From the NCBI RefSeq assembly GCF_964194155.1, contig NC_135901.1:27466001-27530000 (forward strand): a stretch of DNA of 64,000 nucleotides, in the 5' to 3' direction. Source of the stretch: Cetorhinus maximus. Its lineage: Eukaryota. The position numbers were made by a program, and so were the translations under genes. This document shows, one piece after another, positions 3,975 to 62,370 of this stretch. The notes beneath the pieces are model-generated. The model was not told the origin of the DNA. It saw only the letters and a program-made list of their open reading frames with translations, and ran no database searches. Each line of letters starts with the position of its first letter. Positions within the stretch are counted from its first letter, which is position 1.

Positions 3975-4575
3975 CTGCCCTCTTTGTGGAACACCTCCGC
4001 TCAGTCCACAAGCATGACCCTGACCTTCCAGTTGCTGCCGTTATAATTCACCACCTTGCTCTCATGCTCACATTTCTGTCCTCGGCCTGCTGCAATGTTC
4101 CCAAGAAGCCCAACACAAGGTGGAGCACTTTACAGCCTTCTGGACTCAACATTGAGTTCAACAACTTCAGACCATCAACTCTGTTCTCTGTTTTGACCTT
4201 TTTTCGCTAAGTGCCAGTCTGCATCTTGTTTTCATGTTTTTGCTTTCAGACAGAGCTGTCCTTTATTCTGCCATTAACACTTACTCTGGACCAATGCTTT
4301 GTTTCTTTACTACAACTATTACCTCTCCCTTTGTCTTTTGTTCCATGAGATTTTTACTATTTAATCTCGCCCGCCCTCTAACCAATCCCTGACTTTCCCT
4401 TTTGTTCTACCAGACCCTCCCCCATTTCTCAACAGCATCAAACCCATCACATTTCTCCCTCTCTGAAATTCTGGAGAAGAATCAGACTGGACTTGAAACG
4501 TTAACTCTGTTTCTTTCACCAAAGATGCTGCCAGACCTGCTGAGTTTTTTCAGCACTTTCTGTATTTACTTTAAA
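3975..4575 (+). mobile_element. Penelope-like element 3' remnant (GIY-YIG C-terminus plus terminal repeat)
   Basis: EHLRSVHKHDPDLPVA...LQPSGLNIEFNNFR matches the GIY-YIG ORF at 61641-62087; terminal 'gaaacgttaactctg...gatgctgccagacctgctgag'. Confidence 0.8.
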
Positions 4576-4839
4576 TCTATCTGTAATGGTAGCAAAAAAC
4601 ACGATTTACTATCCAGGATAAAATAAATGTCCATCATCAGCTTTTGTGGATCATTTCAGTGGAAATGTGCACTCCCAGGCTGAAAGAGCATCAGCCCACT
4701 GGAAGCAAAGTCGTGAGACTGGTCAGTCCAGCAGAAAGAAACCCTCCGATCCTCCCACTTCACCAAGTGTCATAATGAACATGATTCAGTCCTGGGTGTG
4801 ATTGACAGCAGCAATAACAGCAGAATCCAACTCCTGCAA

Positions 4840-5346
4840 TCACTTGTGAACTCGCTGGTGTCTCCGCAGGTTGGATAAATGAGTGAATCCCTTCCCACAC
4901 ACAGAGCAGGTGAACGCCTCTCTCCAGTGTGAACTCGCTGGTGGTCTCTGCAGTGGGATAACATAGTGAATCCTTTCCCACACGCGGAGCAGGTGAATGA
5001 CCTCTCCCCGGTGTGAACTCGCTGGTGTGTCAGCAGGGTGGATGAAACAGTGAATCCCTTCCCACACTTGGAGCAGATGAAGGGTCTCTCCCCCGTTTGA
5101 ACTGCTTTGTGTTTTTTTAAGGTCAGATGAATTACTGAATCCTTTCCCACACTCGGAGCATGTGAATGGCCTCTCCCCTGTGTGAACTCGCTGATGCCTC
5201 AGCAGGTTGGATGATTCAGTGAATCCCTTCCCACACACAGAGCAGGTGAACGGCCTCTCCCCAGTGTGACTGCGTCGATGAATCTCCAACTCAGATGGGG
5301 ATTTGAATCCCTTCCCACAGTCCCCACATTTCCATGGTTTCTCCAT
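4840..5346 (-). pseudogene. C2H2 zinc-finger gene A (6 fingers, two compensating frameshifts)
   Basis: [14 protein letters not shown] start, TGERPF linkers, HQRVHK-TGA end; fingers 4-5 lie in the alternative frame (ORF 4770-5150); splice acceptor ttttacag|g at 5712; family 3'UTR 4575-4839. Confidence 0.85.
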
Positions 5347-6084
5347 GGTGCGCTTGTCCTTGTGTCTCTCCAGGCCTGATGATCAGTTGAAGCCTCGTCC
5401 TCACACAGAACACCCATAATGTCTCTCCTCACTGTGAATGGAGTGATGTTTTTTCAGGCTGTGTAACAGGTTGAAGCTCTTTCCACACTCAGTGCACTGG
5501 AAACTCTCTCAGTCGGGTGTGTGGGTCTCAGTGCTTTTCTGGTCAAAATGTTGTTTAAAATTTTCTTGAAGCATACAGAACAGACAAACCTTTCTCCTTC
5601 TAGATTCAAAGGCCAATGATATTCAGGTCACGATGAATCGATTGACTCCATCAGATCTTGATGTAAAGTTTGTTTTAAGATTTCTGTTTGCAAATCCTTC
5701 CCCTCTAATATCCTGTAAAAGGAGTTTACACAAGACATCACTGTCAGTACAGGATAGAAATTCAGAACAGACAATTCTAGTTTCTAAGGAACATTCTTTC
5801 CTCTCTCGTTCCCCAAAAGCTGTAAATCTCCATCCCCAATGCACTCTCCTTCCATTCTCACTCTGCTGTATCTAATATACACCCAACAGTGTTAGGGTCG
5901 GAAGCAGTGAACTGTCAAGGAGTGGTTCAGTTGGTAATTGTAGGTTAATTGACAAGTACTTCACTGGGTGTATCTAAAGGGGAAACAGGTGAGACAATGT
6001 GTGTGAAGAATTATGTGTGTGCTAGAATAAAACTCTGCTTGAACTTTTTAAAGACATGACTGAAGTAGTCCAACAGGCGTATAA

Positions 6085-6402
6085 CTCTTTCGAGTTATCA
6101 ACAGATCGCATGTAACTCTTTCGAGTACATTCACAGTTCTTGGTTTCCGGGAGTGGGACATGAACCCAAAACCTTCTGATTCAAAGGCGAGGGTGCTTAT
6201 GAACTGAGCCACAGCTGACACCTCCCCAAAACTCTGCTTGAAACTCTTTTGAGTTATCAACAGTCACAGATTGCAACTCTTTCGAGTACAATCACAGTTC
6301 TTGGTTTTCCGGGAGTGGGACATGAACCCACAACCCTCTGATTCAAAGGCGAGGGTGCTATGAACTGAGCCACAGCTGACACCTCCCCAAAACTCTGCTT
6401 GA
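6085..6402 (-). repeat. Tandem dimer (~160-bp period) of a short tRNA-SINE-head element
   Basis: Two copies of A-box 'tggctcagtt' and B-box-like 'gggttcatgtcc'; bounded by repeated aaaactctgcttgaa at ~6029, 6228 and 6388. Confidence 0.7.
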
Positions 6403-7717
6403 AGGAGTACAGACCTGGTTTCTGTCTTTATTATCAAGAAGCCATTGGAGCTTAACATACAGTACTCCATTACATGGTTAGGGACAGATGGGTCTGTTAG
6501 GGAGAACTTTATTTCAACAGTGAGTGCTGATGACCTGGATCTCGCTGTCTATGAAGGTGATGGGAGCATAAACGAAACTGGATGGACAGACGAAGGAAAT
6601 AACCTTGCAGGGGAACGGGCATATAGAGGGGGAATGGGACTGAGTGAATTACTCTGCAGAGAGTCGGCATGGACTTGAGTTGCAGAATGGACTCCTTCTG
6701 TGCTGTAATGGCTCTATGACTGGATATACATCACGTAGCTACAGTACTGTAGGAACTAGGACTAGGAACGATAATACATAAACTCTATTACAGAATCATA
6801 ATTATTATATCTAAAATGTCCCCTATCACAACATTAGATATATCTATGTCCTATATTATTGTATTGTCCAGGGGGCAGAACTCTTATAAAATAAAATAAG
6901 GAACACATCAGCCATGGGGCTGGAGGCATGGCTGGGGGGTGTGGTGCTGGTGACCAAGACAGCAGTTGGGGAGGGTTGTGGATTTCAATATGAGACGGGC
7001 TGGGGAGAAGGGGTCTTGAGACAATAATAGTGGGAGGGGTGGGGGATAAAATTAACTAAAACTTACAACTTATTTTGTTCAGTCAGAACACCATCATCTC
7101 TCTGCTGGCCGACTCACTCACTTGCCGTCTCACTCAAACTTACTCTGGAAACTCCCGGGATCAGTTTCCCACAGGCTGTCCTAGAAATACGGGGCAAAAG
7201 GCAAAATAAGGAGCAATCCCTCAAAATACAGGACAGTTAATTACCCTGAAATTGTCCCCTTAAATGTCAACCATCTCCCAAGGAAACCACCCCTTTAATT
7301 GTGAAATACATAACGTAGCTACAATATATATTGCAAGACTAAAAACAATAATAAATAAACTTTATTACAGAACCATAAATAATATATCCAATATTTACCA
7401 TATAACACCAGACACATCTCTGTCCTATATTAATTTACTGTCCCCTTAAATGTCAGCCATCTCCTGGGGAAACCACCCTTTTAATTGTGAACATTAGGAA
7501 AGAGACCATCCTTTTAGCCAGACAAATAAATGTGTCAAGCTGAGGGAGCAAAGGATGTCAATGTCTTTAAGAGAGAGAGAGAGACCTGGGCCAACCTTTC
7601 CAGAGTCTGCACCCTCCCTGGATTCACTTCATTTCCCTACAGTTCCTGCAAGTCAACAATTCACCCCAGAATGAGGAAAGAAATGGAAAGGGGGAGAAAA
7701 GAAAGTGTTTTACTCAC

Positions 7718-8284
7718 AGATGTTGGACACAGGAGGCAGTTTTAGTCTGTGTGAAGCTCAATCTTCATTCAGACAAAAACCCGCGCTCTGATTGGCTGGT
7801 GGGCAAGAGACCTTCCGGTCCTCCAACTCTTCCCATTGGTCAATCTCCAGCATGAGGACAATGGAGCAGCGGAAGTCGTCGTGGGCCGTGGAGACCCTTT
7901 GACCCTCGTGATGGATGAGTGTTGGTCAATGGGCAAAAATCCACTCTCTGCACATGCGCAGCTGTCCCACTCCCTCGGACCTGCGCTGCTTCCCCTCTCC
8001 CTCGGACATGCGCAGTCCCGGGCCGACAGCCCGCGCGGCGGATAGAGCGGTTTCCCCATCGCGGGGGAATGTGGGAGCTGCGGCCGTCATTACTCATTCG
8101 GAGCCCAGTCTCCAAACTCCTGGGACTGGGATGGAAAGTGGGGTTGGGGGCGCGCAGTGACCCCGCCCTGAAACAAAGTACATGGGGGTAGTCACTGGAT
8201 TTGATTGTGTCGTCCCCTTAGCAGTTTGTTAGCTTCAGGTGTAAAGATTTAGACACCTGGGTGACATATTTGGGAGGGCAACAG
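7718..8284. promoter_or_regulatory. Bidirectional CpG-rich promoter with divergent non-coding first exons
   Basis: Minus arm CCAAT-CCGGAAG(ETS)-CCAAT then exon ending catct|GTGAGT (donor 7712-7717); NRF1-like GCGCATGTGC; ZNF143-like site ~8059-8078; plus-arm donor acag|GTGAGT at 8285. Confidence 0.75.
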
Positions 8285-8748: not shown

Positions 8749-11700
8749 TAAGGTTAGGTTTAGGGTTCAGTTAGGGTTAGTTTTAGGTTTAGGGTTATGG
8801 TTAGGGTTAAGGTGAGGGTTCGGTTCAGGCTTATGGTTAGTGTTAGGTTTAGGGCAATGATTAGTTTTAGGGTTAGTGTTAGGTTTCGGCTTGTGTTTAG
8901 GGTGATGGTTAGGGTTAGGGTTATGGTTAGGTTTAGGGTTAGGGTTAGGGTTATGGTTAGTTTTAGATTTAGATTTAGTATTAGCTTTAGGGTGAGAGTT
9001 AGGTTTAAGATTAGGGTTAGGTTTAGGGTTATGGTTAAGTTTATGGCTATGGTTAAGTTCACGGTTAGGTTTAGGATTCTGGATAGGTTTAGGGTTATGG
9101 TTAGGTTGAGTGTTAGGTTTAGGGCTATGGGTAGGTTTAGAGTTAAGTTCAGGGTTATGGTTAGGTTTACGGCTATGGTTACGTTGAGGGTTAGGGTTAG
9201 AGTCATGGTTAGGCTTCGGGTTATGGTTAGGTTTAGGGTTAGTGTTAGGTTTATGTTAGGTTGAGTGTTAGGGTTAGACTTAGGGATATGGTTAGGTTTA
9301 GGTTTATGGTTAGGTTTAGGGTTAGGGTTAGGTTTAGGGTTAAGTTAGGGCTAGGTTTAAGTTTAGGGTTCGGGTTAAGTTTAGGGCTTTGGTTAGGTTG
9401 AGAACCATGGTTAGGTTCAGGATTCGTTTTAGTGTAATGGTTAGGGTTAGGTTTATGGTTAGATTTAGGGTTACAGTTAGGTTTAGGTTAAGGTTAGGGT
9501 TAGGATTTTGGTTAGGGTTATGGTTAGGTTTAGGGTTATGTTTAGGGTTAGGGTTATGGTTAGGTTTAGGGCTATGGCTAGGTTTAGGGTTAGATTTAGG
9601 GTTATGGTTACGGTTAGGGTTATGGTTAGGTTTAGAGTTAGGTTCAGGATTAGTGTTTGGATTATGGTTAGTTTTAGAGTTTGGCTTAGGGTTAAGCTTA
9701 GTTTTAGGGTTAGGGTTACGGTTAAGTTTAGGGTTATTGTTATGGTTAGTATTAGGTTTAGGGTTATGATTAGTTTTAGGGTTAGTGTTAGCTTTTGGCT
9801 TGTTTAAGGTAATGGTTAGGTTTCGGGTTAGGGTTAGGTTTAAAGTTATGGTTAGATTTAGGTTTATGGCTAGCTTTAAGGTTAGGTTTAGGCTTAGGTG
9901 TAGGGTTATGTTTAGACTTCTGGGTAGGGTTATTGTTAGGTTTAGCGTTATGGTTAGGTTTAGGATTAGGTTTATGGCAGGTTTAGGTTTAAAGTTAGGT
10001 TTAGGCTTAGGGTTAATGTTAAAGTTAGGTTTAGGGTTATTATTAAGTTTACGGTTATGCTTGGGTTTAGGGTTAGGTTTAAGGATATGGTTAGGTGTAG
10101 TGTTATGGTTAGGTTCATGGTTAGGTTTAGGGTTACAAATAGGTTTAGGGTTAGGGTTCGGGCTATGGTTAGTTTTAGGATTAGGTTTAGGGTTATGGTT
10201 ATGTTTAGGGTTAGATTTTGGGATTATGGTGAGGTTTAGTGTTATGGTTAGGTTCACGGTTAGGTTTAGGGTTATGGATAGGTTTAGGGTTAGGGTTCGG
10301 GTTGTGGTTAGGTTTAGGACTAGATTTAGGTATATGGTTAGGTTTAGTGTTATGGTTAGGTTCACGGTTAGGTTTAGGGTTATGGATAGGTTTAGGGTTA
10401 GGGTTCGGGTTGTGGTTAGGTTTAGGACTAGGTTTAGGTATACGGTTAGGTTTAGTGTTATAGTTAGGTTCACTGTTAAGTTTAGGGTTATGGTTATGTT
10501 TAGGGTTAGGTTTTGAGATATGGTTAGACTTAGGGTTAGGTTTAGGGTTATGGTTAGGTTTAGGGTTAGGTTTAGGGTTGGTTTTAGTGTTATGGTTAAG
10601 GCTAGGGCTGGGTTTAAGATTAGGGTTAGGGTTTGGGCTAGATTTAGGGTTAGATTTAGGGTTATGGTTACAATTAGGGTTATGGTTAGGTTCAGGGTTA
10701 GTGTTGGGATTATGGTTAGGTTTAGGGTTTGGCTTAGTGTTAGGGTTAGTTTTCGGGATATAGTTAGGTTTAGTGTTATGGTTATGTTCATGGTTAGGTT
10801 CAGGGTTATGGATAGGTTTAGGTTTAGGGTTATGGTTAGGTTTAGGATTAGGTTTAGGATTATGGTTATGGTCAGGTTTAGGGTTAAGTTTACTTTTCGG
10901 GTTAGGTTAGGGTTAGGGTTAGGGTTAAGGCTATGGTTAGGTTTAGGGCTATGATTAGATTTAGGGCTAGATTTAGGTTTAGTTTCAGTGTTATGGTTAT
11001 GGTTAGGGTTAGCATTATGGTTAGGTTTAGAGTTAGGATTCGGTTTAGATTTTGGGTCAGGTTTAGGGTTAGGGTTAGGATTAGGATTATGCTTAGGTTA
11101 GGATTATGGTCAGGTTTAGGGTTAGGTTTAGTTTCAGGGTTAGGGTTGAGGCTATGGTTAGGTTTAGGGCTAGGTTTAGGTTTATCTTTAGTGTTATGGT
11201 TAGGGTTCAGGTTAGGGTTAGGGGTATAGTTAGGGTTATGGTTAGTGTTAGGTTTAGAGTTAGGCTTAAGTTTAGGGTTAGGGTTAGGTTTAGGGCTATG
11301 GATAGGTTTAGGGCTAGGTTCAAGTTTAGTTTTAGTGTTATGGTTAGGGTTAGCTTTAGGGTTAGGTTAGGGTTAGGGTTAGCTTTAGGGTTAGGTTAGG
11401 GTTATGTTTAGGGTTTTGATTAGGGTTAGGTTTAGAGTTAGTTAGCCTTAGGGTTAGGTTCAGGGTTAGGTTAGGGTTATGGCTAGGTTTAGAATAATGG
11501 TTAGGGTTAGGGGTTAGGGTTAGGGCTATGGTTGGGTTTAGGGCTATGGTTATGTTTAGGGCTAGGTTTAGGTTTAGTTTTAATTTTATGGTTAGGGTTC
11601 ATGTTTGGGTTTGGTTTAGGGCTATTGTTAGGGTTAGGGCTAGGTTTAAGTTTAGTTTTAGTGTTGTGGTTTGGGTTAGGGTTAGCTTTAGTGTTAGGTT

Positions 11701-14260
11701 AGGGTTATGTTTAGGGTTTTGGTTAGGTTTAGGGTTAGATTTAGGGTTATGGTTAAGTTTAGGGTTAGGTTTAGAGTTAGAGTTAGCCTTAGGGTTAGGT
11801 TAGGGTTATGGCTAGGTTTAGAATAATGGTTAGGGTTAGGTTTAGAATAATGGTTAGGTTTAGGGTTAGATTTAGGGCTATGGTTAGTTTTAGGGTTAGG
11901 GTTAGCTTTAAGGTTAGGTATAGGTTTAGAGTTAGGTTTAGGGTTCACTTAGGGTTAGGCTTAGAGTTATAGTTAGGTATATGGTTAGATTTAGGGCTAT
12001 GGTTAGGTTTAGGTTTAGATTTAGGGTTACGGTTAGGTTTGGGTTACAGTTAGGTGTAGGGTTACAAAGAACAAAGATAAAACAAAGAAAAGTACAGCAC
12101 AGGAACAGGCCCTTCGGCCCTCCAAGCCTGCACCGATCATATTGCCCATCAACTAAAACATTTTGCACTTCTGGGGTCCGTATCCCTCTATTCCCATCCT
12201 ATTCATGTATTTGTCAAGCTGCCTCTTAAACACCACTATCGTACTTGCTTCCACCGCCTCCTCTGGCAGCGAATTCCAGACAATCACTACCCTCTGTGTA
12301 AAAAACTTGCCCCACACATCAGCTTTATAGTTTTCTCCTCTCACCTTAATCTATGTCCCCTAGTAATTGACTCTTCCACCCTGGGAAAAAGCTTCTGACT
12401 ATCTACTCTGTCCACGCCACTCATAATTTTGTAAACTTCTATCAAGTCGCCCCTCAATCTCCGTCGCTCTAATGAGAACAATCCGAGTTTCTCCAACCTC
12501 TCCTCATAGCTAATAGCCTCCAGACCAGGCAGCATCCTGGTAAACCTCCTCTGCACCCTCTCCAATGCCTCCATATCCTTCTGGTAATGTGGTGACCAGA
12601 ATTGCATGCAATATTCCAAGTGTGGCCTAACCAAGGTTCTATACAGCTGCAGCATGACTTCCCAGCTTTTATACTCAATACCCCTGCCAATGAAGGCAAG
12701 CATGCCATATGCCTTCCTGACTACCTTATCCACCTGCGTTGCCACTTTCAGTGACCTGTGGACCTGTACACCCAGATCCGTCTGCCCGTCGATGCACTTA
12801 AGGGTTCTGCCATTTACTGCATAATTCCTGCCTGTATTAGACCTTCCAAAATGCATTACCTCACATTTGTCCGGATTAAACTCCATCTGCCATTTCTCCG
12901 CCCAAGTCTCCAACCGTTCTATATCCCATTGTATCCTTTGATAATCCTCTTCACTATCTGCAACTCCTCCAACCTTGGTTAGCAGGGTTAGGTTAGGGTT
13001 AGGTTTAGTGTTAGGATTTGGTTTAGGTTTAGGGTCAGCTTTTGGCTTCGGGTTAGGGTTAGGATTATGCCTAGCTTTAGGGTTATGGTTAGGGTTAGCG
13101 CTAGGTTTAGGGTGAAGGTTAGGTTTAGGGCTATGGTTTGGTTTAGGGCTAGGTTTAAGTTTAGTTTTAGTGTTATGGTTTGGGTTAGGATTTGGGTTAG
13201 GTTGAGGGTTTTGGTTAGATTTAGGGTTAGATTTAGCGTTATGGTTAGGTTTAGGTTTAGGTTTAGGGCTAGGTTTAAGTTTAGTTTTAGTGTTATGGTT
13301 TGGGTTAGGATTTGGGTTAGGTTGAGGGTTTTGGTTAGATTTAGGGTTAGATTTAGCGTTATGGTTAGGTTTAGGTTTAGGTTTAGGGCTAGGTTTAAGT
13401 TTAGTTTTAGTGTTATGGTTTGGGTTAGGATTTGGGTTAGGTTGAGGGTTTTGGTTAGATTTAGGGTTATATTTAGCGTTATGGTTAGGTTTAGGTTTAG
13501 GTTTAGGTTTAGGGCTAGGTTTAGGATTAGGTTAGGGTTAGGTTAGTGTTAGGTTAGGGTTAGGGTTTGGCTTAGAATAATGATTAGGTTTAGGGTTAGA
13601 TTTCGGGTTGTGGTTATTTTAGGGTTAGGTTTAGGGTTGTCTAGGTTTAGAGTTAGATTTAGGGCTAGGTTATGGTTAGGGTCAGATTTAGAGTTATGGT
13701 TAGGTTTAGGGTTAGATTTAGGGTTATGATTAGGTTTAGGGCTATGGTTAAGATTGGGTTACAGTTAGGTGTAGAGTTAGATTTAGGGCTTGGATAGGTT
13801 TAGGGTTAGGGTTAGATTTAGGGCTTGGATAGGTTTAGGGTTAGGGTTAGCTTTAGGTTTATGGTTAGGTTCAGAGTTAGGTTTAGGGTTATGGTTAGGT
13901 TTAATGTTAGATTTAGGGTTATGGTTAGATTTAGGGTTATGGTTAGGTTTGGGGTTAGCTTTAGAGTTGGGTTAGGGTTAGTGGTAGTTTTGACTTCATG
14001 GTTAGGTTTAGGGTTATTGTTATGTTTAGGGCTATAGTTAGGTCTAGGGTTAGGTTTAGGGTTATGGTTAGGTTTAGGGTTAGGTTTAGGTTCCGGGTTA
14101 GTTTTAAAGTTAGGTTAGGATTATGTTCAGGGTTATGGTTAGGTTTAGGGCTAGATTTAGGGTTATGGTTATGTTTAGGGCAAGGGTTAGCTTTAGGGTT
14201 AGGTTTCAGTTTAGGGTTAGCTTTAGGGCTATGGTTAGTTTTAGGGTTAGGTTTAGGTTG
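8749..14260 (+). repeat. Degenerate telomere-like satellite (TTAGGG/TTATGG/TTAGGT hexamers)
   Basis: 6-bp periodicity over ~4.6 kb excluding the CR1 insert, G-rich on +; dominant 18-mer TTAGGG-TTATGG-TTAGGT. Confidence 0.95.
12065..12978 (-). mobile_element. 5'-truncated CR1 LINE inserted in the telomere-like array
   Basis: ORF2 C-terminus WAEKWQMEFNPDKCEVMHFG...LVRPHLEYC..WSPHYQKD..LERVQRRFTRM...LERRRLRGDLIEVYKI; (TCTTTGT)-type tail at 12065-12090. Confidence 0.95.
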
Positions 14261-16245: not shown

Positions 16246-16329
16246 ACAAACCCCAACTGTCAGAATGAACATGGTTCAGTACTGGATGTGATTAACAGCA
16301 GCAATAACAGCAGAATCCAGCCCCTGCAG

Positions 16330-17178: not shown

Positions 17179-17409
17179 TGTAAAATCAGATTACAAACAT
17201 ACTACAAAAGCAAAGGGTAGAAATCCAGAACTGTCGATTCCAGTTGTCATAGAACATCCTTCCTCCTTTCAAACAATAAATCTCTGTCCCGCACACGCTT
17301 CGTTCCTCCCTATTGATTGTAGCTCTAATTCATCCTACTATCCTCCTCCTGCTTTTTCCCCAATTCTCCTCCCCTGAAGGTGCTGACTCTCGGGTTCAGT
17401 TTCACACTC

Positions 17410-22580: not shown

Positions 22581-22599
22581 ATAGGCAATACAAAGTTAG

Positions 22600-42000: not shown

Positions 42001-42019
42001 TGGACAATACAACATTAGA

Positions 42020-50297: not shown

Positions 50298-50498
50298 ATT
50301 GACCAATGGGAACAACTGGAGGACCGAAAGGACTCTGGTCCTCCAGCCAATCAGAGCTTCCCCCATTGTCTGAATGCAGAAGTTGGACAATGAGTTTGTT
50401 CACCTGCTCATTGCTGCCCAGTAAAGCTGCTGCTCCTCTCTCTCTGAATGAAGGATGAGCTTCACACAGACTAAAACTAACTCCTGAGTCCAATGTCT
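50298..50498 (+). promoter_or_regulatory. Orphan ZNF-family promoter/exon 1 with mutated donor
   Basis: CCAAT..CCAAT module, donor GCGAAT instead of GTGAGT, family intron to ~51170, no finger exon downstream. Confidence 0.65.
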
Positions 50499-51214
50499 GC
50501 GAATAAAACACCTTCTTACCACCACCACCACCACCACCACCGTTTCCATTTATTTTCTCATTCTGGGGGTAAATTGTTGACTTGCAGCAACTGAGGGGAA
50601 AGGAAATGAATCCAGGGAGGGTGGAGACTCTGGAAAGGTTGGTCCAGGTCTCTCTCTCTCTCTCTTAAAGACACTGACATCCTTTGCTCCCTCAGCTTGA
50701 CACATTTATTTGTCTGGCCAAAAGGATGGTCTCTTTCCTAATGTTCACAATTAAAGGGGTGGTTTCTCCAGGAGGTAGCTGACATTCAGGTGACATTATA
50801 GCAATATAGGATATAGTATGGTCTAGTGTTATTATAATGGTACATATTATTTATGGTTCTCTAATTAAGAACACGTATTTTATTCCTAGTCTTGTAATAT
50901 AGTGCTGTATATATTTCCAGTCATAGAGTCATAAAGGCACAGGAGTCTATTTGGTAACTTGAGTCCTTGCCAACTCTGTAAAGTAATCCAGTCAGTACCA
51001 TTCCCCCTCTGTATCCCCGTTGCCCTAAAAGTTTATTCCCTTCAAGTGGCCATCCAATTTCACTTTGAAATCATTGATTGTCTCCGCTAACACCATCCTC
51101 ATCGGCAGCGGGTTTCAGATCATCACAACTTACTGTCTAAATAAAGTTTCTCCTCACATCCCCGTGTAGTTCTAATCAAGTAATCCAGTACGAATAGTCA
51201 TTTGGTAGCACAGA

Positions 51215-51870: not shown

Positions 51871-51884
51871 TTTCTTTTTTTAAT

Positions 51885-52436: not shown

Positions 52437-52593
52437 TCCATCTAGAACAAATAAAAAAAATTAGGAAACAGTGATCACAAGCTACCTACACCCTATTATT
52501 GAAACACTAATTCATGCTACTATCCTCCTCCAGCTTTTTCACCAGTTCTCCTCCCCTGAAGGTACTGACTCTCGGGTTCAGTTTCACACTCAC

Positions 52594-53270
52594 CTATTAC
52601 CCTCCCCAATATGTCACCCAGGTGTCTGAATCTTTACACCTGAAGTTAACAAACTGTTTTGCTAAGGGGGCGTCACAATCAAATCCAGTGACTACCCACA
52701 TATACTTTATGTCAGGGCGGGGTCACTGCGCCCCCCACCCCCATTTTCCATCCCAGTCCCACGATTTTGGAGACTGGGCTCCGGATGAGTAATGGCGACC
52801 GCAGCTCCCACAATCCAACGCGCTGAGAAAAGCGCTCTATCCGCCAAGCGGGCGGGCAGCCCGGGACTGCGCATGTCCAAGGGAGCGGGGAAACTGCGCA
52901 TATGGTGAGGAGACGATGGATTGCGCATGTGAGCCTGCGGGTTTTGGGCATGAATGTGCATGTGCGGGGGTGAGATGGGGACCTGCGCAAATCCCGCGCT
53001 CTGATTGACTGAGGGCCATTGTCTGTTCCGTCTTCCAGCCTTTCCCATTGGACAACAGCTCAGCGCGGCTGGTGGGGGGGAGGGGGTAGGGGTCGCAAAA
53101 TCCCTCCCACGTGGGGTTACGCCTCTCATTGCCTTCAGGTGAGGGATTGACCAATGGGAAGTCTGGAGCACCGGAAGGACTCTTGTCCTCGAGCCAATCA
53201 GCACGCTGGCTTTGTGTAAATGAAGAGTGACCTTCACACAGACTAAAACCTCCTCCTGTGTCCAACATCT
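52594..53270. promoter_or_regulatory. Bidirectional promoter driving ZNF-H (+)
   Basis: Donors GTGAGT at 52588-52593 (-) and 53271-53276 (+); ZNF143-like site 52804-52822, several GCGCAT(G) motifs, CCAAT-ETS-CCAAT. Confidence 0.8.
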
Positions 53271-54501
53271 GTGAGTAAAACACTTTCTTTTCTCCCCCTT
53301 TCCATTTCTTTCCTCATTCTGGGGGGAAATTGTTGACTTGCAGGAACTGAAGGGAAAGGAAGTGAATCCAGGGAGGGTGCAGACTCTGGAAAGGTTGGCC
53401 CAGGTCTCTCTCTCTCTCTTAAAGACATTGACATCCTTTGCTCCCTCAGCTTGACACATTTGTTTGTCTGGCTAAAAGGATGGTCCCTTTCCTAATGTTC
53501 ACAATTAAAGGGGTGGTCTCCCCAGGAGATGGCTGACATTTGAGGGGACAGTATATTTATATAGGACAGAGATATGTCTAGTGTATGTTATTTATGGTTC
53601 TTTAGTAACAGAGATGGAGTCATTACAGCACAGAAGAGCCCACTTAGCAATTGGAGTCCATGCCGACACTGTAGAGCAACCTAGTCAGTCCCATCCCCCC
53701 TCTATATCCCTGTTCCCCTGCAAGTTTATTTCCTTCAAGTGCCCATCCAATTTCATTTTAAAATCATGAATCGCCTCCACTTCCACCACCCTCGGAGGCA
53801 GCAAGTTCCTGATCATGAAAAATCACTGCCTAAAAAAAACCTTCTTCAGATTTTCCCGATATCTCTGATCAGGAAATAAACTTAAATGATGATTTTCATA
53901 TTATGGACAGGAAGCAATGGGTTTGCAGCTGTTGATCAGCATGAATCGGCCCCTTCTGGACAATTGGGAGGGTGTATATTAAATACAGCAGAGTGAGAAT
54001 GGAGGGAGAGTGTGTGGGATGGAGATTTACAGATGTTGGGAACAAGTGAGGGATGTATGTTCCATAGAAACTAGAATTGTCAGTTCTGAATTTCTATTGC
54101 TGTCCTGACAGATGATTTTTGTAAACACTTTTTACAGGATATTAGCAGGGGAGGATTTTCAGCCTGAAATCTCAAACCAAACATTGTGTCAAGATCTGAT
54201 AGAGTCATCCAATTCGTCGGGACCTGAATATCATCGGCCGTTGAATCTGGAAGGAGAAATGTTTGTCTGTTCTGGCTGCTTCAAAAGGTTTTCATCATCG
54301 GTGTGACTGGGTAAACACCGAGACACAGACACCCGAGTAAGAGTGTTCCAGTGAAATGAGTGTGGAAAGAACTTTAACCAGTTACACAGCCTGAACGTAC
54401 ATCACAGTATTCACAGCGGGGTGAGGCTGTGCACGTGTTCTGTGTGAGGACGAGGCTTCAACTGATCATCAAACCTGGAGAGTCACAAGGACTCCTGTAT
54501 C

Positions 54502-55236
54502 ATGGAGAAGCTGTGGAAATGTGGGGACTGTGGGAAGGGTTTCCGGTTCCCGTCTGCGCTGGAAACTCATCGACGCATTCACACTGGGGAGAGGCCATTT
54601 ATTTGCTCCATGTGTGGGAAGGGATTCACTGATTCATCCACCCTTCGGAAACACCAGCATGTTCACACCAGGGAGAGGCCGTTCACCTGCTCCGAGTGTG
54701 GGAAGGGATTCAGGGATTCATCCCACCTGTTGACACACCAGCGGGTTCACACCAAGGAGAGGCCATTCACTTGCTCGGAGTGTGGCAAGGGATTCAGTCA
54801 TACATCTCACCTGCTGACACACCAGCGAGTTCACACGGGGGAGAGGCCATTCACCTGCTCTGTGTGTGGGAAGAGATTCACTCAGTCTTGCAACCTGGTG
54901 ATGCACCAGCGAGTTCACACTGGGGAGAGGCCACTCACCTGCTCTTTGTGTGGAAAGCAATTCAATCACTTATCCAACCTGGTGAGACACCAGCGAGCTC
55001 ACAGTGGAGAGAGGCCGTTTACCTGCTCTGAGTGCGGAAAGGGATTCACTGATTCATCCAACCTGCTGAGACATCAGCGAGTTCACACCGGGAGAGACCA
55101 TTCGCCTGCCCTGAGTGTGGGAAGGGATTCAGTCAGTTCTCGAGCCTGCGGAAACACCAGTGAGCTCACACTGGGGAGAAGCCATTCACCTGCTCTGAGT
55201 GTGGGAACGGATTCTCTCAGTCCCCACACCTGCTGA
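54502..55236 (+). CDS. C2H2 zinc-finger protein H, 7 intact fingers then frameshifted tail
   Basis: [14 protein letters not shown]..., intact splice signals (acceptor 54137|54138); frameshift near 55090, original family stop at ~55257. Confidence 0.82.
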
Positions 55237-55599
55237 CACCCCAGTGAGTTCACAAGTGATTACAGGGGTTGGATTCTGCTGTTATTGCTGTTGTTAATCA
55301 CATCCAGAACTGAAACATATTCATTCTGACACTTGGTGAAGTGGGAGGGTCAGAGGGTTTCTTTCTGCTGGACTGGCTGGTCTCGTGACTTTGCTCCCAA
55401 TGGGCTGATGCTCTTTGAGCCCGGGAGTGCATATTTCCACTGATATGATCCACAAAAGCTGAAGAAGCACATTTATTTTATCCTGGTAGTAAATAGTGTT
55501 TTTCCACCCACTACAGGTAGATCTGAAATAAATGCATTTGTCTCTGTTCCATTGAGCCTCGAGGCTGGAGTGAGGATTTATGAGAATGACACGAGTCAT

Positions 55600-55770: not shown

Positions 55771-56821
55771 CAATTACTGTTTTAATTAACAAACAGTAAC
55801 AAAGATTGAATAATAATGAATGAGTAGTTATAGTAAAAGATTGAATTTTATTTGCTGTGAACATGTAAAACCTTAATTTCTGTGTATGTAAAGAATGTGC
55901 AATGATGATAAATGTACTGGCAAGAAAGACCTTCAAGCTCTGATTAGCCTCAACATTTGAAATATGAATAAAGGATGGTATAGAGTCAGATAAAGGGATA
56001 GTGTCAAAAAGTTCTGTGGTATACCTGTCTAAGGTAATGAGAGAATGTGGTGTAAGTAATTGGGGATCCAATTAAATTAATCTAGGAACCAAATTGACCA
56101 ACAGGCCCAAAAGCTGTTCCCACCAAGGACGAGGGGACACAGGTTGAAGGTTTTAAGTGCGAGATGTGGGGGGGATGTGAGGAAGAAGTTTTTTTTACAC
56201 AGCAAGTGAGAATGACCTGGAACTCTCTGCCTATGAGGTGATGCAATCAGAGATGATGAACGATTTCAAAAGAAAATTGGATGGGCACTTGAAGGCAATA
56301 AACTTGCAGGGATACGGGGATATAGAGGGGGAATGGGACCGACTGGATTGTTCTACAGAGAGTCAGCATGGACTCGAGTTACCAAATGGACCTTTTTGAA
56401 GGTAACTTTGTAACATTTAACCCATGTTGGTGCAGCTGTTCAACAAAACTAACAACTTCTTAAACAAATATTTCTGATTCTTGACCAATGGGAAAAGGGT
56501 TCCTCATTTCCCCACAACAAATTGAGCCAATCAGCTTGGAGTCCCTTCTAACTGTGAACTATAACTTGTTCCAGGACACCCTGTTAAGATACACCTGGTG
56601 CTCTGACCCCTTCCTGAACTTAACACCAGTTTTTTTTTCCTTAAAGCTACATTACAGTATCTGGAACTTAAAGAGACAGGCAATTGAAGACTGTTCATCG
56701 TTAAGCTTACATACAGTACAATTTGGTAATATAAGCCTTATTAATTACACAAATGTGTCATCGAGGTGAAGTTTAACAGTTAACACTGATAAAGAGGATG
56801 ATTCCCGTTATTTTGCAGGGA

Positions 56822-57908
56822 ATCCCCACTCTTTTTAGTGACTTCAATGTGTTCATATCACCAAACCAGAACTTTCACACTCCTTAACCTTGTGTCGATC
56901 CTCAGTACAAGGTGAATCTGGGTAACATGTTCACCAATCTAATCCACATACTGTCGAGGTGCAGCCACTATCTAACACAGCACAGTTGAATGAGTCTGTG
57001 ACTAATATACTCATCACTGGACCAAAGCTCCTTGTGATGACTACAATTCCTTCAGAGTGATCATCATCATCATCTTCAGCCTCAGAATTCTCTGTGTCAT
57101 GTGTCACTTCGAAGACCCTGATTTTCCACTTTGGGCAGTTCATCACATAATGATATTTTGAGTCAGACCTGAAACACCTGTTAATTGTTCTCTGGCCATT
57201 CCTGGGGTTCATTCACCTATTAATGCTGTTCCAATCCTGTCTTTTGTTGAAATATCCAGATCTGCTAAAGATGTTTTCACCCTCATTCGAAACCTGTCAA
57301 AGTCCAACTATGCTTCATAGGCATTCAATAGATCATCTTTCTTGTAAATCTCATCAATGAACTTGAATAGAAGATCCAAACCTTCTTCAGTATCCAACTT
57401 CCAGCTCACTAAATACTTTGCTTCTGAATTTACTTTTGTTGGGAAGTGACAATGCTAAGACCAGACCTTGTTTCCTCTTTGGTAGGGACGTAACCCGTGT
57501 CCACATATCCACTTCATTCTTCCACTGGTCGTGTGGCTCAGATACTGAGAACATCAGCGGGTAATCAGACCCTGACAACTTCCACTTGCTTTCAGCCATT
57601 TCTCACAAAAGCTACTCGGGTTGTAAGCCTCTGTTTAATATTTTATTTTCCTCTAGTTACCAACATTCACCATTAGACAATCATTCTCTGTTACCATGTT
57701 ATAATGTTGACAGCCTGATGACGAAGGAAGAAACTGGAGCTAATCTTTACTTGGTATAGATTTATTCACCGAGTGAAGCATTACAGGTATATACCTCCTG
57801 ACTTGACTCCACTCTATGTTAGTAAGGGTCCCCTTATATATGCTCAAGTACCGATCTAATACATGATGTCCACCCGTATATACTTAACCTCAATTCACAC
57901 AATCAATA
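56822..57908 (-). mobile_element. Copia-type element 5' part (LTR, PBS, gag, protease)
   Basis: LTR 57697-57908, PBS 57686-57696, MAESKWKLSGSDYP..., AVLDSGCTSTVCG; lacks the 145-bp insert. Confidence 0.85.
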
Positions 57909-58361
57909 GCCACAGTCAGAGCATCTAAAAGGTCTCCAATCGGTGTGACTGTCATGGTGTGTCAGCAGCTCGGATGTACAGGTGAATCCCTTCCCACACT
58001 CAGAGTAGGTAAACGGCCGCTCCCTGGTGTGAATTCGCTGGTGTCTCAGCAGGGTGGATCGATCACTGAATCCCTTCCCACACTCAGGGCAGGTGAATGG
58101 CCTCTCCCCGGTGTGAACTCGCTGGTGTGATTGCAGGCTGAATAACTGACTGAATCCCTTCCCGCACTCAGGGCAGGTGAATGGCCTCTCCCTGGTGTGA
58201 ACTCGCTAGTGTGACTGCAGGTGAGATGACTGAGTGAATCCCTTCCCACACTCAGAGCAGGTGAATTACCTCTCCCCGGTGTGACTGCGCCAATGAATTT
58301 CCAACACAGATGGGTATCTGAATCCCTTCCCACAGTCCCCACATTTCCACGGTTTCACCAT
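57909..58361 (-). pseudogene. C2H2 zinc-finger gene I (5 fingers plus partial; nonsense codons)
   Basis: [14 protein letters not shown]; TAA after the first linker, TAG in finger 2; ends CSDCG at the LTR; acceptor at 58711. Confidence 0.85.
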
Positions 58362-59292
58362 GATGCGCATGTTCTTGTGTCTCTCCAGGTTCTACGATCA
58401 GTTGAAGCCTCGTGCTCACAGAACACGTGTACAGTCTCTTCCCGCTGTGAATGGTGATGTTTTTCTCAAGCTGCATAACTGGTTAAAGTTGTTCCCACAG
58501 TCAGTCTCTCACTCGGGTGTGTGTGTCTCGGTGCTTTTCCAGTCACACTGATGTTTAAAACCTTTTGAAGCAGACAGAACAGACAAACATTTCTCTTTCC
58601 AGATTCAAAGGCTGATCATATTCAGGTCCCGATGAGTCAGGTGAGTCTGCCAGATCTTGACGTGATGTTTGGTTTGAGATTTCTGTCAGCAAACCCTCCC
58701 CTTCTAATATCCTGCTAAAGGAGTTTACAAAAGTCATTCTTGTCAGTACAGGATAGAAATTCAGAACAGACAATTCTAATTTCTGTGGAACATTCTTTCC
58801 TCTCTCATTCCCCAAAAGCAGTAAATCTCCATCCCACAAACTCTCACTCCATTCTCACTCTGCTGCAACTAAGTTACACCCAACATTACTGCACTAAAAA
58901 TGTGTCTAATACACAGTGCTCAATTACATGATTAGAGATACATGGTGCTGCGGGGATGAAATTTATTTCAACAGCCAGTGGTGATGTCCTGGAACCCACT
59001 GCCTATGAGGGTGGTGGTTCCAGAGACGATCAATGAGTTCTAAATGAAATTGAATTGACACTTGAAGGAAATGAACATGCAGGGGAACGAGGGTATAGAA
59101 GGGGAATGGGATTGACTGGATCGCTCTACAGAGAGTTGGTATGGACTCGAGTTGTCAAATGGACTCTTTCTGTGTCAGAATTACTCCATCATTGGAAATA
59201 TATTAAGTAGCTACAGTACTCTCCTCCAAGACTAGAAGGATAACAAATTAACTTTATGACAAAACTATCAATAATATATCTAAAGTTTCCCC

Positions 59293-60182
59293 CGTTACAG
59301 AAGTATAATAATTTTCATAATATTATTCTGGTTTATTGTTGAGTAGGTTTGTGAGCGTGGATAGTTCTCTCTGTTTGATTTAACTACATTTGGAGTCAGA
59401 GAAACTGCAAGCTTGAAATTATCAAAAGAAGTTAGGTGTAGAAATGTACTTGAAATGCTTATGAGTAAACATCAATGGGGTCCTAGCATGTAAAGTGTGA
59501 AAGGAATTTGCGTTTCTAATGAAGTGAAGGGGTTGTTTGGATTTCAAAGGGATGTTAGGATTTTTACAACTAGCCAGATGAGCAAGGCTAAGCGTTGTGT
59601 TAATTTTCCCAAAGGTTACTGATAATATTGGCAACATGAAAGATTGTTATAGTATGGGAAAGTTAAAGATCCAAAGACCTATGGAACAATGGAATTAACA
59701 TATTAAAGAGAGAGAAACATATATAAAGGAGAATGAAAGGCTATGTTGGGAGGGCCCTTTGGGAAGCTTCCACCCATTTGTGCATAAGTCTACTTTGTCC
59801 AGAAACTAAAGTTGAAGACAAGCTTTTGGATCTCCTCTGTCAAGTGGGTACTGTGGTAACTTGCTGACTTATTTTTTAAATTTAAAATTTATTTTGGATT
59901 GTTGCCTTAAAGGGGGTGTGTAATTTAGAGTCAGGTCAATTAGGAATTTGAGGATTTGTTAAAGTATTAAGTAACTGTAATCTTATGTATGTGCTTGAAA
60001 TCTTTCATTTTGTTAATGAATATTTTAATGTCATGTTTAAAATCTCTGAAGGTCTTAGTGGACTCCTTGTTTCTGAATTCAGTGCACACATTTTCTTGAA
60101 ATAAATACAAATTGCAAAACTGTTGTGATAGCATGGCCAAGTTTCCCCTGTGGATTTGGTCCACCTGGCACACATCATAACA
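59293..60182 (+). mobile_element. Solo LTR-like insertion in the ZNF-I intron
   Basis: (C)GTTA...TAACA termini; flanks are contiguous in the paralogous intron at ~6820. Confidence 0.6.
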
Positions 60183-60900
60183 CCCAAATCACAACATTAG
60201 ACATATCTTTGTCCTTCATACTGTATTGTCCAGGGGGCAGAACTCTAATGAAATAAAATAAGGGACACTTCAGCCGTGGGGGAGGCATGGGTGGGGGTGA
60301 GATGCTCGTGACCGTGAAGCAGGTTGGGGGTATTTGCGTTTCAATATGAGAGGGGCTGGGTAGGAGGTGTCTAGAGACAATAATAGTGGGAGCAGTGGGG
60401 TTTAAAATCAACTAAAACTTACAATGGTTCTTGTTCAGTCACAACATCATCATCTCTCTGCTGGCCGACTCACTCACTTGCCGTCCCACTCGAATCACTC
60501 AAACTCACCCTGGAGACTCAGGGATCAGTTTCTCACAGGCTGTCCTAAAAATATGGGCAAAAATACAAAATAAGGAGGAATCCCTTAAAATACAGGACAG
60601 TTAAACACCCTGAAATTGTCTCCTTAAATGTCAGCCACCTCCTGGGGAAACCACCCCTTTTATTGTGAACATTAGGAAAGAGACCATCCTTTTGGCCAGA
60701 CAAGTAAATGTGTCAAGCTGAGGGAGCAAAGGATGTCAATGTCTTTAAGAGAGAGAGAGAGAGAGACCTGGGCCAACCTTTCCAGAGTCTGCACCCTCCC
60801 TGGATTCACTTCCTTTCCCTTCAGTTCCTGCAAGTCAACAATTTCCCCCCAGAATGAGAAAAGAAATGGAAAGGGGGAGAAAAGAAAGTGTTTTACTCAC

Positions 60901-61266
60901 AGATGTTGGACACAGGAGGAAATTTCAGTCTGTGTGAAGCTCAATCTTCATTCACACAAAGCCCGCGCTCTGATTGGCTGGAGAACCAGAGTCCTTCCGG
61001 TCCTCCAACTCTTCCCATTGGTCAGTCCCTCAGCACGACGGGAAGGGGGCGGGCTCTCCCCCGCACATGCGCAGCTTCCCCTCTCCCGAGTTCTCCGAGC
61101 GGCTTCTCGCTCTGTCCGGAGCTGTCAGCCGGATGCCTGGAAACCTTGGCTCGAGGAGGTGGAGGTGGAGGGGGAACAATGGGTGGGGGCGGGGCTCCGT
61201 GTCCGCGCGGGTGGGGTGGCGGGGCTCCCGTGTCCGCGCGCCTGGCCTGCAGACTGGAACCCGAGG
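60901..61266 (-). promoter_or_regulatory. Promoter/exon 1 of ZNF-I
   Basis: CCAAT-ETS-CCAAT, NRF1-like motif, donor 60895-60900; truncated on the right by Penelope. Confidence 0.75.
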
Positions 61267-62090
61267 ATAAAAGCAAAAAACTGCGGATGCTGAAAATCCA
61301 AAACAAAAACAAAAATACCTGGAAAAACTCAGCAGGTCTGACAGCATCTGCGGAGAGGAACAGTTAACGTTTCGAGTCCGAATGACTCTTCAACAGAACT
61401 AAGTAAAAATGGAATAGAGGTGAAATATAAGCTGGTTTAAGGGGGGGTGGGACAGGTAGAGCTGGATAGAGGGTCAGTGATAGGTGGAGAAAACCAAAAG
61501 ATGTCACAGACAGAAGGACAAAGAGGTGTTGAAGGTGGTGATATTATCTAAAGGAATGTGATCATTACGGGTAGAAAGCAGGACAAGCAAGGTACAGATA
61601 ACCCTGGGGGAAGGGATTGAAAAAGGCTAAAAGGTAGAGATTAAACAATGGATGGAAATTCATTTAAAAATAATGGAAATAGGTGGGAAAATAAAAATGT
61701 ATATAAATTATTGCAAAAAAGGGGGATCGGAAAGGGGGTGGGGATGCAGGAGAGAGTTCGTGATCTAAAATTGTTGAACTCAATATTCAGTCCGGAAGGC
61801 TGTAAAGTGCCTAGTCGGAAGATGAGGTGCTGTTCCTCCAGTTTGCGTTGAGCTTCACTGGAACATTGCAGCAAGCCAAGGATGGACATGTGGGCATGAG
61901 AGCAGGGTGGGGTGTTGAAATGGCAAGCGACAGAGAGGTCTGGGTCATGCTTGCGGACAGTCCGAAGGTGTTCCACAAAGCGGTCACCCAGTCTGCGTTT
62001 GTTCTCTCCAATGTAGTGGAAACTGCTTTGGGAGCAGCGAATGCAGTAGACTAAATTGAGGGAAGTGCAAGTGAAATGCTGCTTCACTTG
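61267..62090 (-). mobile_element. Penelope-like retroelement 3' part with GIY-YIG endonuclease and hammerhead motif
   Basis: ORF 61641-62087 NLVYCIRC....HYIGENKRRLGDRFVEH...RKLEEQHLIFRLGTLQPSGLN; hammerhead-like motif 61361-61401. Confidence 0.9.
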
Positions 62091-62370
62091 AAAGGGATTC
62101 GCTCAGTTATCCCACCTGCTGACACACCAACAAGTTCACACTGGAAAAGACCATTTACCCGCTCTCGATGTGGGAAGGATTCACTCAGACGTCCCATCTG
62201 CAGACACACCTGCAAGTTCACACTGGAGAGAGGCCCTTCATTTGCTCCATGTGTGGGAAGAGATTCGCTCTTTCATCCTACCTGCTGACACAACAACAGG
62301 TTCACACTGGGGAGAGGCTGTTCACCTGCTCTGAGTGTGAAAAGGGATTCACTTGGTTAATCACTATGGG
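62091..62370 (+). pseudogene. 3' remnant of a ZNF-D paralog
   Basis: Near-identical to 31064-31331 including the same frameshifts. Confidence 0.85.

Follow-up and report, generated by a model that had tools for sequence, protein, structure and literature searches.

A shark family of compact, finger-only C2H2 zinc-finger genes that grew by block duplication

The window analysed here, a stretch of 64,000 nucleotides, holds members of what appears to be a shark-wide family of compact two-exon C2H2 genes whose proteins are fingers only. The family grew by block duplication and by gain and loss of fingers. Its proteins likely bind varied DNA, including repeats and transposons, and likely act via a partner on their conserved first finger; we give this reading as a whole a probability of about 0.45. 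In the mechanism we propose, the varied fingers would recognise diverse sequences, repeats and transposons among them, and repress them, and a partner protein would dock on the first finger. We found no account in the literature of the nature or possible action of this elasmobranch finger-only family.

The original prediction of about 11 finger arrays in the window was borne out: MEK-type starts number 11 and lie from 5346 to 58361, and the window also holds a remnant (16253-17299) and a fragment of an array (62092-62361). Common modules, as it had described, are indeed present, with exon 1, the 5' portion of the intron, the leader of exon 2, the start and the 3'UTR 76-96% identical to a reference copy, far beyond chance. 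Most copies miss one or more of them, however, and only the copies starting at 5346, 45738 and 54502 (n=11 starts) combine exon 1 and the 5' block of the intron with a leader and a complete 3'UTR. Finger number varies as had been claimed, although over a range of 2 to 21, counted in any frame, rather than 5-19. Only one of the 11 reading frames, that of 45738 on the minus strand, is intact to the terminal finger.

The reference cassette (52490-55560, plus strand) consists of a promoter, an exon 1 running to 53271, an exon 2 from 54138 with its ATG at 54502, 7 fingers in frame followed by a frameshift, and a 3'UTR at 55255-55560. Its conserved intron 5' block occupies 53272-53585 of the same strand, with an acceptor at 53343, and its exon-2 leader, which forms the 5'UTR, occupies 54138-54501. 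The sole intact gene (44769-47165, minus strand) has a type A exon 1 with the donor after 47035, an intron block trimmed to 43 nt, an exon 2 from 46095 and an ATG at 45738; its stop ends at 45064, giving a product of 224 aa with 8 fingers, and its 3'UTR spans 45068-44769. Two broken cassettes on the minus strand begin with a type A exon 1: at 4561-7845 this exon (7845-7717) is followed by the conserved intron block (7716-7405), a leader (5711-5356), the ATG at 5346, 5 fingers with internal frameshifts and a 3'UTR (4844-4561), and at 57903-61032 exon 1 lies at 61032-60900, the intron block at 60899-60617, the leader at 58710-58371 and the ATG at 58361. On the plus strand, the broken cassette at 17827-19944 carries a deletion across exon 1 and the intron block and has its ATG at 18802, with 10 fingers in any frame and 1 in frame, and that at 37439-38616 retains the 3' end of the intron, the leader, an ATG at 38023 and 5-6 fingers. 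The remnant at 16253-17299 (minus) is a decayed cassette with a partial leader, degenerate fingers and the start of the 3'UTR, and the fragment at 62092-62361 (plus) contains 3 fingers with 92% identity to 31063-31332.

The single common promoter and exon 1 of the original prediction gave way to a different arrangement, in which two types of exon 1, A and B, stand back to back on a common promoter with splice donors ~450 bp apart. One such bidirectional, CpG-rich promoter (27271-27763; GC 0.59, CpG o/e 0.88) carries type B on the minus and type A on the plus strand with donors 491 bp apart. The broken minus-strand cassette at 25648-27303 has a type B exon 1 with its donor at 27271, a 144-nt intron, an ATG at 26784 and a second start at 25953; the plus-strand cassette at 27631-31330 has a duplicated leader and an ATG at 29518 that opens 595 aa and 18 canonical fingers in frame, nearly all of one fingerprint, before a frameshifted tail. 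The other (47035-47486) pairs type A on the minus with type B on the plus strand, donors 450 bp apart; the broken plus-strand cassette at 47454-48543 joins a type B exon 1 to an ATG at 47813 and 6-7 fingers, with a deletion from intron block to leader. Two orphans complete the window: a type A exon 1 with a piece of promoter (36661-36775, minus), and a promoter with exon 1 and conserved intron block (50297-51145, plus) that has no finger exon downstream.

Exon 1 is joined directly to exon 2 in contigs of runs X1, X2 and X4 (2 studies), which come from related organisms and whose RNA origin is a guess. This splice is shown for the family as a whole. Expression is likewise supported for the family, and a spliced contig of X4 contains the exon-2 start of either the intact 45738 gene or its intact sister.

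No other part of the family is as uniform as the intron 5' block, at 4.3% pairwise, and the block likely contains an alternative non-coding exon. A search of the block against Rfam returned 0 matches at the gathering score and otherwise chance-level matches, and its fold (z -1.0) is no better than that of shuffles, so that an intronic snoRNA or other known RNA was set aside; an antisense protein spanning exon 1 and the block, with neither homologue nor Pfam match, was set aside as well. Gene conversion may account for the uniformity, given that the block differences of recent pairs match those of neutral flanks (non-CpG 3.7% vs 2.8-4.4%), that common block variants track duplication history poorly (concordance 0.23 vs 0.77) and that one set of three bases separates 7 of 7 distant copies from the cluster consensus. 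However, unrelated copies have no excess of common variant sets, block variants are mostly singletons, intact genes lie nearer the block consensus (1.8% vs 2.5%, p=0.011; 15 and 37 copies), and the translated block matches a catshark model at 19/21 positions, compared with 20/41 for the leader.

The leader accounts for the finger-only state. An in-frame stop lies exactly 12 codons upstream of the MEKPWKC ATG in 159 of 239 copies, and in 38 of the 54 intact ones, so any upstream coding exon is cut off from the fingers; an open in-frame upstream ATG exists in only 3 of the 54, and the context of the start codon is of Kozak type. Three stops within the leader are kept in 84, 85 and 89 of 110 copies, leader lengths fall into the three classes modulo 3 as 43/40/27, and the leader's dead fingers show dN/dS of 0.49-0.60 at -1/+3/+6. 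At the edge of the cluster, gene L101 still codes the finger preceding the start and has Gly in place of the family's Met. We infer from these patterns that the 5'UTR preserves, in fossil form and with family-wide stops, an acidic segment and three fingers, and that the finger-only state is derived: a founder would have lost its N-terminus through nonsense codons, and a new start would have arisen in a finger linker.

Searches for effector domains agree with the original prediction that KRAB and SCAN are lacking and that the proteins consist of fingers. In 2.064 Mb, window included, a search run with the domains alone gave no match to KRAB, SCAN or ZAD at E<0.3. Across the genome (G000), KRAB had a single match, located on contig C34 (150 of 152 candidates scored), and the 147 matches to BTB (150 of 218 scored) all lie outside C24; the genome-wide SCAN search scored 150 of 4,987 candidates. 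The N-terminal KRAB domain that marks KRAB-ZNFs is therefore lacking, neither SCAN nor BTB is in frame with the fingers, the upstream stop preventing fusion, and the upstream exon contributes no FiNZ domain, as judged from the fixed stops that separate it from the finger frame.

Around the window, the cluster extends over 4.4 Mb and holds ~630 two-exon C2H2 genes; in the 1.66 Mb of it that were sampled we counted 239 starts, or 14.4 per 100 kb. Counting cassettes genome-wide, a check proposed with the original prediction, gave ~2,400 starts, most of them on contig C24. Annotated relatives occur in other sharks and one skate, and the promoter, start and leader stops recur in several shark genera. 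The arrays have an 84-bp period, with Pfam zf-C2H2 matching 8 and 18 stretches, which identifies them as tandem Kruppel-type fingers with TGEKP-like linkers. Among the 239 sampled copies 54 are intact, 179 broken and 6 unclear, and the clustered copies are under birth-and-death turnover, as had been proposed; that three quarters are broken is an observation against our main explanation. A whole-finger difference separates 28 of 60 measurable close pairs (16 are equal, 16 otherwise different, and 23 further pairs were not measurable). Close paralogues share duplicated stretches of several kb, reaching 10 kb or beyond, within which flanks and satellites travel along. The repeating unit is a head-to-head gene pair, not the single promoter-to-3'UTR cassette once envisaged, and as the duplicated blocks end variably and take in flanks, we set aside a mobile-element model for the cassette.

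Diversifying selection acts on the fingers at -1 and +3 between subfamilies. Estimates were made by pairwise counting rather than with codeml. In the first finger of 43 intact genes, dN/dS is 2.34 (1.74-3.2) at -1, 1.67 (1.15-2.37) at +3 and 1.10 at +6, compared with 0.13 at +1, 0.20 at +2, 0.19 at +5 and 0.02 at the zinc ligands; position -2 evolves as fast as -1. Internal fingers (40 genes, 244 fingers) behave similarly, with 1.80, 1.43 and 1.27 at -1, +3 and +6 and a conserved +2, and their non-contact helix positions also reach ~1.0. Positive selection at contact residues, as originally predicted, thus holds between subfamilies but not among recent duplicates, where these residues show no excess change: dN/dS is 0.58 (0.41-0.81; 77 pairs, 299 fingers), or 0.64 (0.20-1.76) in the 11 pairs in which both genes are intact, a sample too small to decide on its own. 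The near-invariant +1 Pro, +2 Ser and +5 Glu of the first finger make it a candidate partner surface.

What such proteins do can be read in several ways. Binding to varied targets is favoured by the excess of amino-acid replacements at -1 and +3 when subfamilies are compared, and published work offers two parallels, a correlation of ZNF and TE counts across metazoans whatever the accessory domain and the derepression of young TEs on FiNZ-ZNF knockdown in zebrafish (both described in PMC10547256). On the other hand, the lack of excess in recent duplicates counts against an ongoing arms race, which predicts more; the conserved +2, the non-contact helix positions near 1.0 and the fast -2 of the first finger also weigh against it; in Hemiptera the size of a finger-only family is described as uncorrelated with repeat content (PMC6444547); and location among TEs is no evidence for targeting them. 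The proteins could instead regulate host genes, satellites or RNA by occupancy or competition, transposons playing no part. This we consider rather unlikely: the lack of an effector, the CpG-rich, housekeeping-like promoter and a subfamily with a single fingerprint at least 10 times, as expected for simple-repeat binding, all suit it, and KRAB-ZNFs are reported to have satellites, promoters and further ZNF genes among their binding sites too (PMC10547256), yet a family whose copies arise and die fast and whose contact residues have diversified speaks more for shifting targets than for a fixed network of host genes. An unlikely explanation, in our estimation, is mostly neutral, duplication-driven growth, in which a small useful core diversified long ago and the hundreds of present copies, thrown off by block duplication on a chromosome rich in repeats, are decaying. 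The 179 of 239 broken copies, the flanks and satellites carried in duplicated blocks and the near-neutral rate at contact residues of recent duplicates (pN 0.032 vs a leader divergence of 0.040) would follow from it; it sits poorly with a framework constrained even in recent pairs (dN/dS ~0.2-0.3, partly an effect of the filter used), with the strict conservation of zinc ligands in intact first fingers, with the spliced contigs and with the persistence of promoter, start and leader stops in several shark genera.

Two further readings concern the leader. The ~40-residue acidic segment at the start of exon 2 might be the shark counterpart of FiNZ, a 28-aa acidic N-terminal sequence (PMC10547256), fused to the fingers in sister subfamilies, whereas in this family the type B exon 1 would yield it as a separate upstream peptide. 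The type B ATG is in frame with the segment, the identical junction occurs in catshark gene model P0052, and automated sawshark, white shark, zebra shark and horn shark models (P0049, P0056, P0071, P0073, P0048) carry the frame of the segment on into fingers. We nevertheless hold this improbable: the frame is open for at least 48 codons in 10/29 type B and 22/99 type A copies (p=0.22) and pN/pS is 0.62 vs 0.72, so similar that a selection-kept peptide from type B is unsupported, and the segment has no codon-position pattern, no Pfam family, no usable Atlas match and no start codon common to the sister models. A longer true protein, made by reading through or recoding the stops of the leader, is extremely improbable, even though each stop is retained in ~80% of copies and annotated sawshark, white shark and horn shark proteins end at identical stops. 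Both TAA and TGA would need recoding, and ~80% is the background conservation of the leader; we rejected read-through on the leader lengths, which do not keep frame, and on leader-finger zinc ligands that drift like other leader-finger positions.

Our main reading, finger-only binding to varied DNA with a partner on the first finger, could be extended further. Sharks would then silence transposons with a chromosome-scale finger-only repertoire, the ancestral acidic N-terminus having been discarded and its effector role moved to the first finger (DNA face diversifying, the outer face of +1 Pro, +2 Ser and +5 Glu a constant docking site), and one common promoter with a conserved alternative 5'UTR exon would switch the whole repertoire together; this extension we regard as doubtful. 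Were transposon silencing without an effector domain to prove true, it would add a third means of sequence-specific genome defence in vertebrates, and if there is no such silencing the family is a clear example of one founded by truncation. The first finger offers a specific surface for partner tests, and the invariant start puts hundreds of members within reach of one morpholino or guide set, as with FiNZ genes. Cartilaginous fishes are reported to have no KRAB-ZNFs, large retroelement-rich genomes and 700-3,600 ZNF reading frames, with shark counts already tabulated (PMC10547256); a large share of these frames is attributable to this family, whose anatomy is simple.

The closest known systems include elasmobranch models named automatically as 'zinc finger protein 239/271/850-like'. 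Their first finger is 74-89% identical to that of the family, they have the same start or a sister start one finger upstream and the same leader stops, and their Pfam matches include no effector domain; the names are machine-given, and several models fuse adjacent genes into products of 900-1,500 aa. Tetrapod KRAB-ZNF clusters are described as sharing birth-and-death, finger gain and loss and selection on DNA-binding specificity (PMC2604467), whereas the shark family has no KRAB, SCAN or BTB; fish are described as having neither KRAB-ZNFs nor TRIM28 (PMC10380595), and a loss of KRAB families is described for cartilaginous fishes (PMC8455134). Finger-only poly-zinc-finger expansions are already known in insects as the hemipteran ZF271-like/APEZ genes, which likewise combine absence of KRAB or other domains with tandem clusters, pseudogenes, variable finger number and expression (PMC6444547). 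Those are given as ~115 genes, grouped by 4-8 per cluster and varied in their exons, in contrast to hundreds to thousands of uniform two-exon shark genes in head-to-head pairs; the origin is independent, and no counterpart of the fossil N-terminus is described for them. Cyprinid FiNZ-ZNFs (zebrafish chromosome 4q), as described in PMC10547256, resemble the shark family in having hundreds of two-exon genes in one chromosome region, selection at base-contacting residues and a fish lineage without KRAB-ZNFs. The same source describes an upstream exon that codes the acidic N-terminal domain, positive selection among recent paralogues and demonstrated TE repression, whereas the shark family has a non-coding upstream exon and no such excess among recent paralogues, and TE repression by its members is proposed by analogy.

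Scanned in six frames, the window holds about 80 canonical C2H2 fingers, grouped into a dozen arrays. Searching the window with the modules of one copy shows which parts recur around these arrays, at 76-96% identity: promoter and exon 1, the 5'-most 313 nt of the intron and also its 3' end, a leader (the 5'UTR part of exon 2) about 360 nt long, the start, and the 3'UTR. The shared cassette of the original prediction is therefore real, yet damage is heavier and uniformity lower than was claimed: of the 11 MEK-type starts just one, 45738 on the minus strand (224 aa, 8 fingers), opens a frame that runs undamaged through the last finger, and in most copies at least one module is missing. The intron of the first cassette carries a 161-bp tandem duplication (92%) at 6083-6403. 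The array at 29518-31305, whose 18 fingers have almost one fingerprint, is a candidate binder of a simple repeat; since a relative at another sampled locus (L114) shares both this array and its frameshifted tail, the apparently broken form may be the working one.

The cassettes belong to a much larger set. A search of the 3.99-Gb genome (G000) with the exon 1 region, in which 40 of 770 candidates were scored, placed all 43 matches at 27.0-31.3 Mb on C24, the contig that holds the window (G000:C24:27,466,001-27,530,000). We examined 2.0 Mb of additional sequence beyond the window, and the 1.664 Mb of contiguous samples contain 239 starts, or 14.4 per 100 kb; as the promoter module spans 26.94 to 31.31 Mb, this density extrapolates to about 630 genes in the cluster. 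The same modules are also present on C24 far from the cluster. Genome-wide, an exact 25-nt pattern covering the start matches 624 times; of the 100 matches listed, 97 fall on C24 (0.3 to 18.9 Mb), and 18 of 20 matches to a longer pattern lie on C24, up to 33.6 Mb. Since 61 of the 239 sampled starts fit the 25-nt pattern, the family total extrapolates to about 2,400 starts. By a strict rule 54 of the 239 copies are intact (2-20 fingers), 6 are unclear and 179 are broken, a class that assembly errors could have inflated; 105 have an ATG followed by at least 4 in-frame fingers. Public gene models of 900-1,500 aa (P0003, P0006-P0008, P0010-P0012), which join several neighbouring members in one protein, are an annotation artefact of such clusters. 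Most intact proteins end one residue after the last histidine. Intact genes at L003, L004, L012, L016, L018 and other sampled loci also show two atypical fingers as a recurring block inside many arrays, and internal copies of the first-finger type.

That these proteins consist of fingers only, with no KRAB, SCAN or BTB exon, was borne out by several lines of evidence. An in-frame stop lies exactly 12 codons above the ATG in 159 of 239 copies (38 of 54 intact ones) and just 3 of the 54 intact copies have an open upstream ATG, so no upstream exon can be fused to the finger frame, independent of any transcript; the ATG itself has a Kozak-type context. When contigs from four runs of related organisms, guessed to be RNA, were mapped onto one copy, depth rose in the last ~90 bases of exon 1, fell in the intron and rose again at exon 2. 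In contigs of three of these four runs, which come from two studies, the exon-1 donor is joined straight to the beginning of exon 2; the letters of one such joint match only the intact gene of the window and its intact sister among the contiguous samples. Domain searches agree: KRAB, SCAN and ZAD, used as isolated domains excised from proteins, gave no match with E below 0.3 in 2.064 Mb, BTB was absent from C24 among the candidates scored, and the one KRAB match in the genome (G000:C34:9123034-9123144, on another contig) is, we presume, probably PRDM9. SCAN-like candidates number about 5,000, scattered over all large contigs; too few were scored to decide, and they probably derive from a retrotransposon family rather than from SCAN-ZNF genes.

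The leader appears to preserve what was once coding. Its translation gives an acidic segment followed by three fingers, with stops kept in 84, 85 and 89 of 110 copies. The three fingers are dead, because the frame is not kept (length modulo 3 is 43/40/27) and their zinc ligands drift at the same pace as their other positions. The stops are old, since sawshark, white shark and horn shark have automated protein models that end at the same ones. At the cluster edge, one gene retains a coding third leader finger, with Gly in place of the family's Met; several horn shark models are alike in this. The ATG of the type B exon 1 shares its reading frame with the acidic segment. We infer that nonsense codons cost the founder its N-terminus and that a new start arose in a linker. 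The acidic segment might instead be a hidden effector, and some models in sister subfamilies do read it into the fingers; the odds are low, as the window family does not maintain it as a peptide. A profile of the segment matched 33 proteins among 1.84 billion, two of them noise; the 20 that were looked up are shark models or unnamed, and Pfam found no effector family in the 31 scanned. These comparisons exclude three named records as possibly not independent of the genome under study.

Across 41 complete cassettes, pairwise differences amount to only 4.3% in the 280-nt block that opens the intron, versus 9.4% for the 3'UTR, 12.3% for exon 1 plus promoter, and 21-22% for the leader and intron 3' end. 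This block matches no known RNA. An acceptor lies in it, 72 nt from the start of the intron; two contigs, which come from two studies, end exactly at a downstream donor; and in an automated catshark model the block serves as an exon, identical at 19 of 21 translated positions. We lean towards an alternative non-coding exon under selection, although local homogenisation is a rival or a contributor to its uniformity. The three bases that set the window cluster apart from distant copies lie within 53312-53335, where the reverse strand resembles what we take to be a ZNF143 site. The intact gene of the window lacks most of the block, which is thus not essential.

The original prediction of a single promoter-to-3'UTR cassette as the spreading unit gives way to one of duplicated blocks holding gene pairs, flanks of several kb included. 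Neighbouring genes alternate in orientation (p=2e-12), with 86 head-to-head, 83 tail-to-tail and 63 tandem arrangements among 232 neighbours. Head-to-head genes share a single CpG-rich promoter. Of its two exon-1 types, one follows a presumed CCAAT box and the other what we take to be a CRE-like site; 37 such head-to-head pairs have donors less than 1.5 kb apart, most at ~450 bp. In nine close paralogue pairs, 0.25-2.4 Mb apart, shared blocks at ~4-6% divergence extend several kb into the flanks and in some pairs reach the limit of the compared 11 kb. Among 83 close pairs, arrays differ by whole fingers in 28, are equal in 16, differ otherwise in 16 and are unmeasurable in 23. Because flanks are shared, neighbours alternate and whole fingers differ, we infer block duplication together with unequal exchange inside the arrays.

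Several repeats accompany the arrays. A degenerate telomere-like 6-bp array (~770 units, 66% matches) at 8752-12064 and 12984-14257 is interrupted by a LINE-like piece; arrays like it are found at about nine sites of the sampled cluster, where block duplications probably brought them. Three related copies (90-92%) of a 1.6-kb element lie directly behind finger arrays (31464-33046, 62373-63968, 56786-57584). Reading frames beside it at 32329-33801, presumably integrase-like, and one at 61641-62102 (minus), which we take to resemble a Penelope-type GIY-YIG endonuclease, had no match in Pfam.

Positive selection at contact residues was found between subfamilies and not among recent duplicates. 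All dN/dS values are pairwise counts with a bootstrap over genes rather than likelihood site models. In 77 recent pairs (2-9% leader divergence; 299 fingers of 488 finger pairs aligned, with first fingers and pairs with more than 3 framework differences dropped), dN/dS was 0.58 (0.41-0.81) at contact residues and 0.29 in the framework, and 0.64 (0.20-1.76) at contacts in the 11 intact-intact pairs. Dead leader fingers give a neutral baseline of ~0.5 by the same method, since CpG decay inflates dS; this places contact change among recent duplicates close to neutral rather than adaptive. In the comparison between subfamilies, the internal fingers from 40 intact genes reach 1.80 (-1), 0.54 (+2), 1.43 (+3) and 1.27 (+6), with 1.02 at other helix positions. 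The first finger, which can be compared between genes without shuffling, gives 2.34 (-1), 2.14 (-2), 1.67 (+3) and 1.10 (+6) in 43 intact genes, together with 0.13 (+1), 0.20 (+2) and 0.19 (+5); +1 is Pro in 54 of 54 tabulated and +5 is Glu in 88%. In C2H2 geometry +1 and +5 make no base contact, so this finger is variable on its DNA face and fixed elsewhere, and on sequence grounds it would be the best candidate for a partner surface.

Taken together, these genes make up a poly-zinc-finger family of sharks that is real, very large and finger-only. A literature search, mostly outside subscription papers, returned no account of a shark finger-only two-exon C2H2 family. For six shark assemblies the supplement of Wells et al. 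2023 (PMC10547256) counts 703-3,586 ZNF reading frames, and for a chimaera 475; the code of that study names shark chromosomes rich in them; the main text has zero occurrences of "shark", "chondrichth" or "cartilaginous". Whale shark work (PMC8455134) reports KRAB families lost in cartilaginous fishes, and finger-only expansions with clusters and pseudogenes are described for Hemiptera (PMC6444547). The kind is already known; new here are the family's scale and fossil N-terminus, its paired promoter and its two-faced first finger. Transposon targeting is plausible by analogy and, if true, would be what makes the family important, while the lack of recent positive selection makes an active arms race less likely. 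In its mode of evolution the family resembles KRAB-ZNF and FiNZ-ZNF clusters, yet it belongs to neither.
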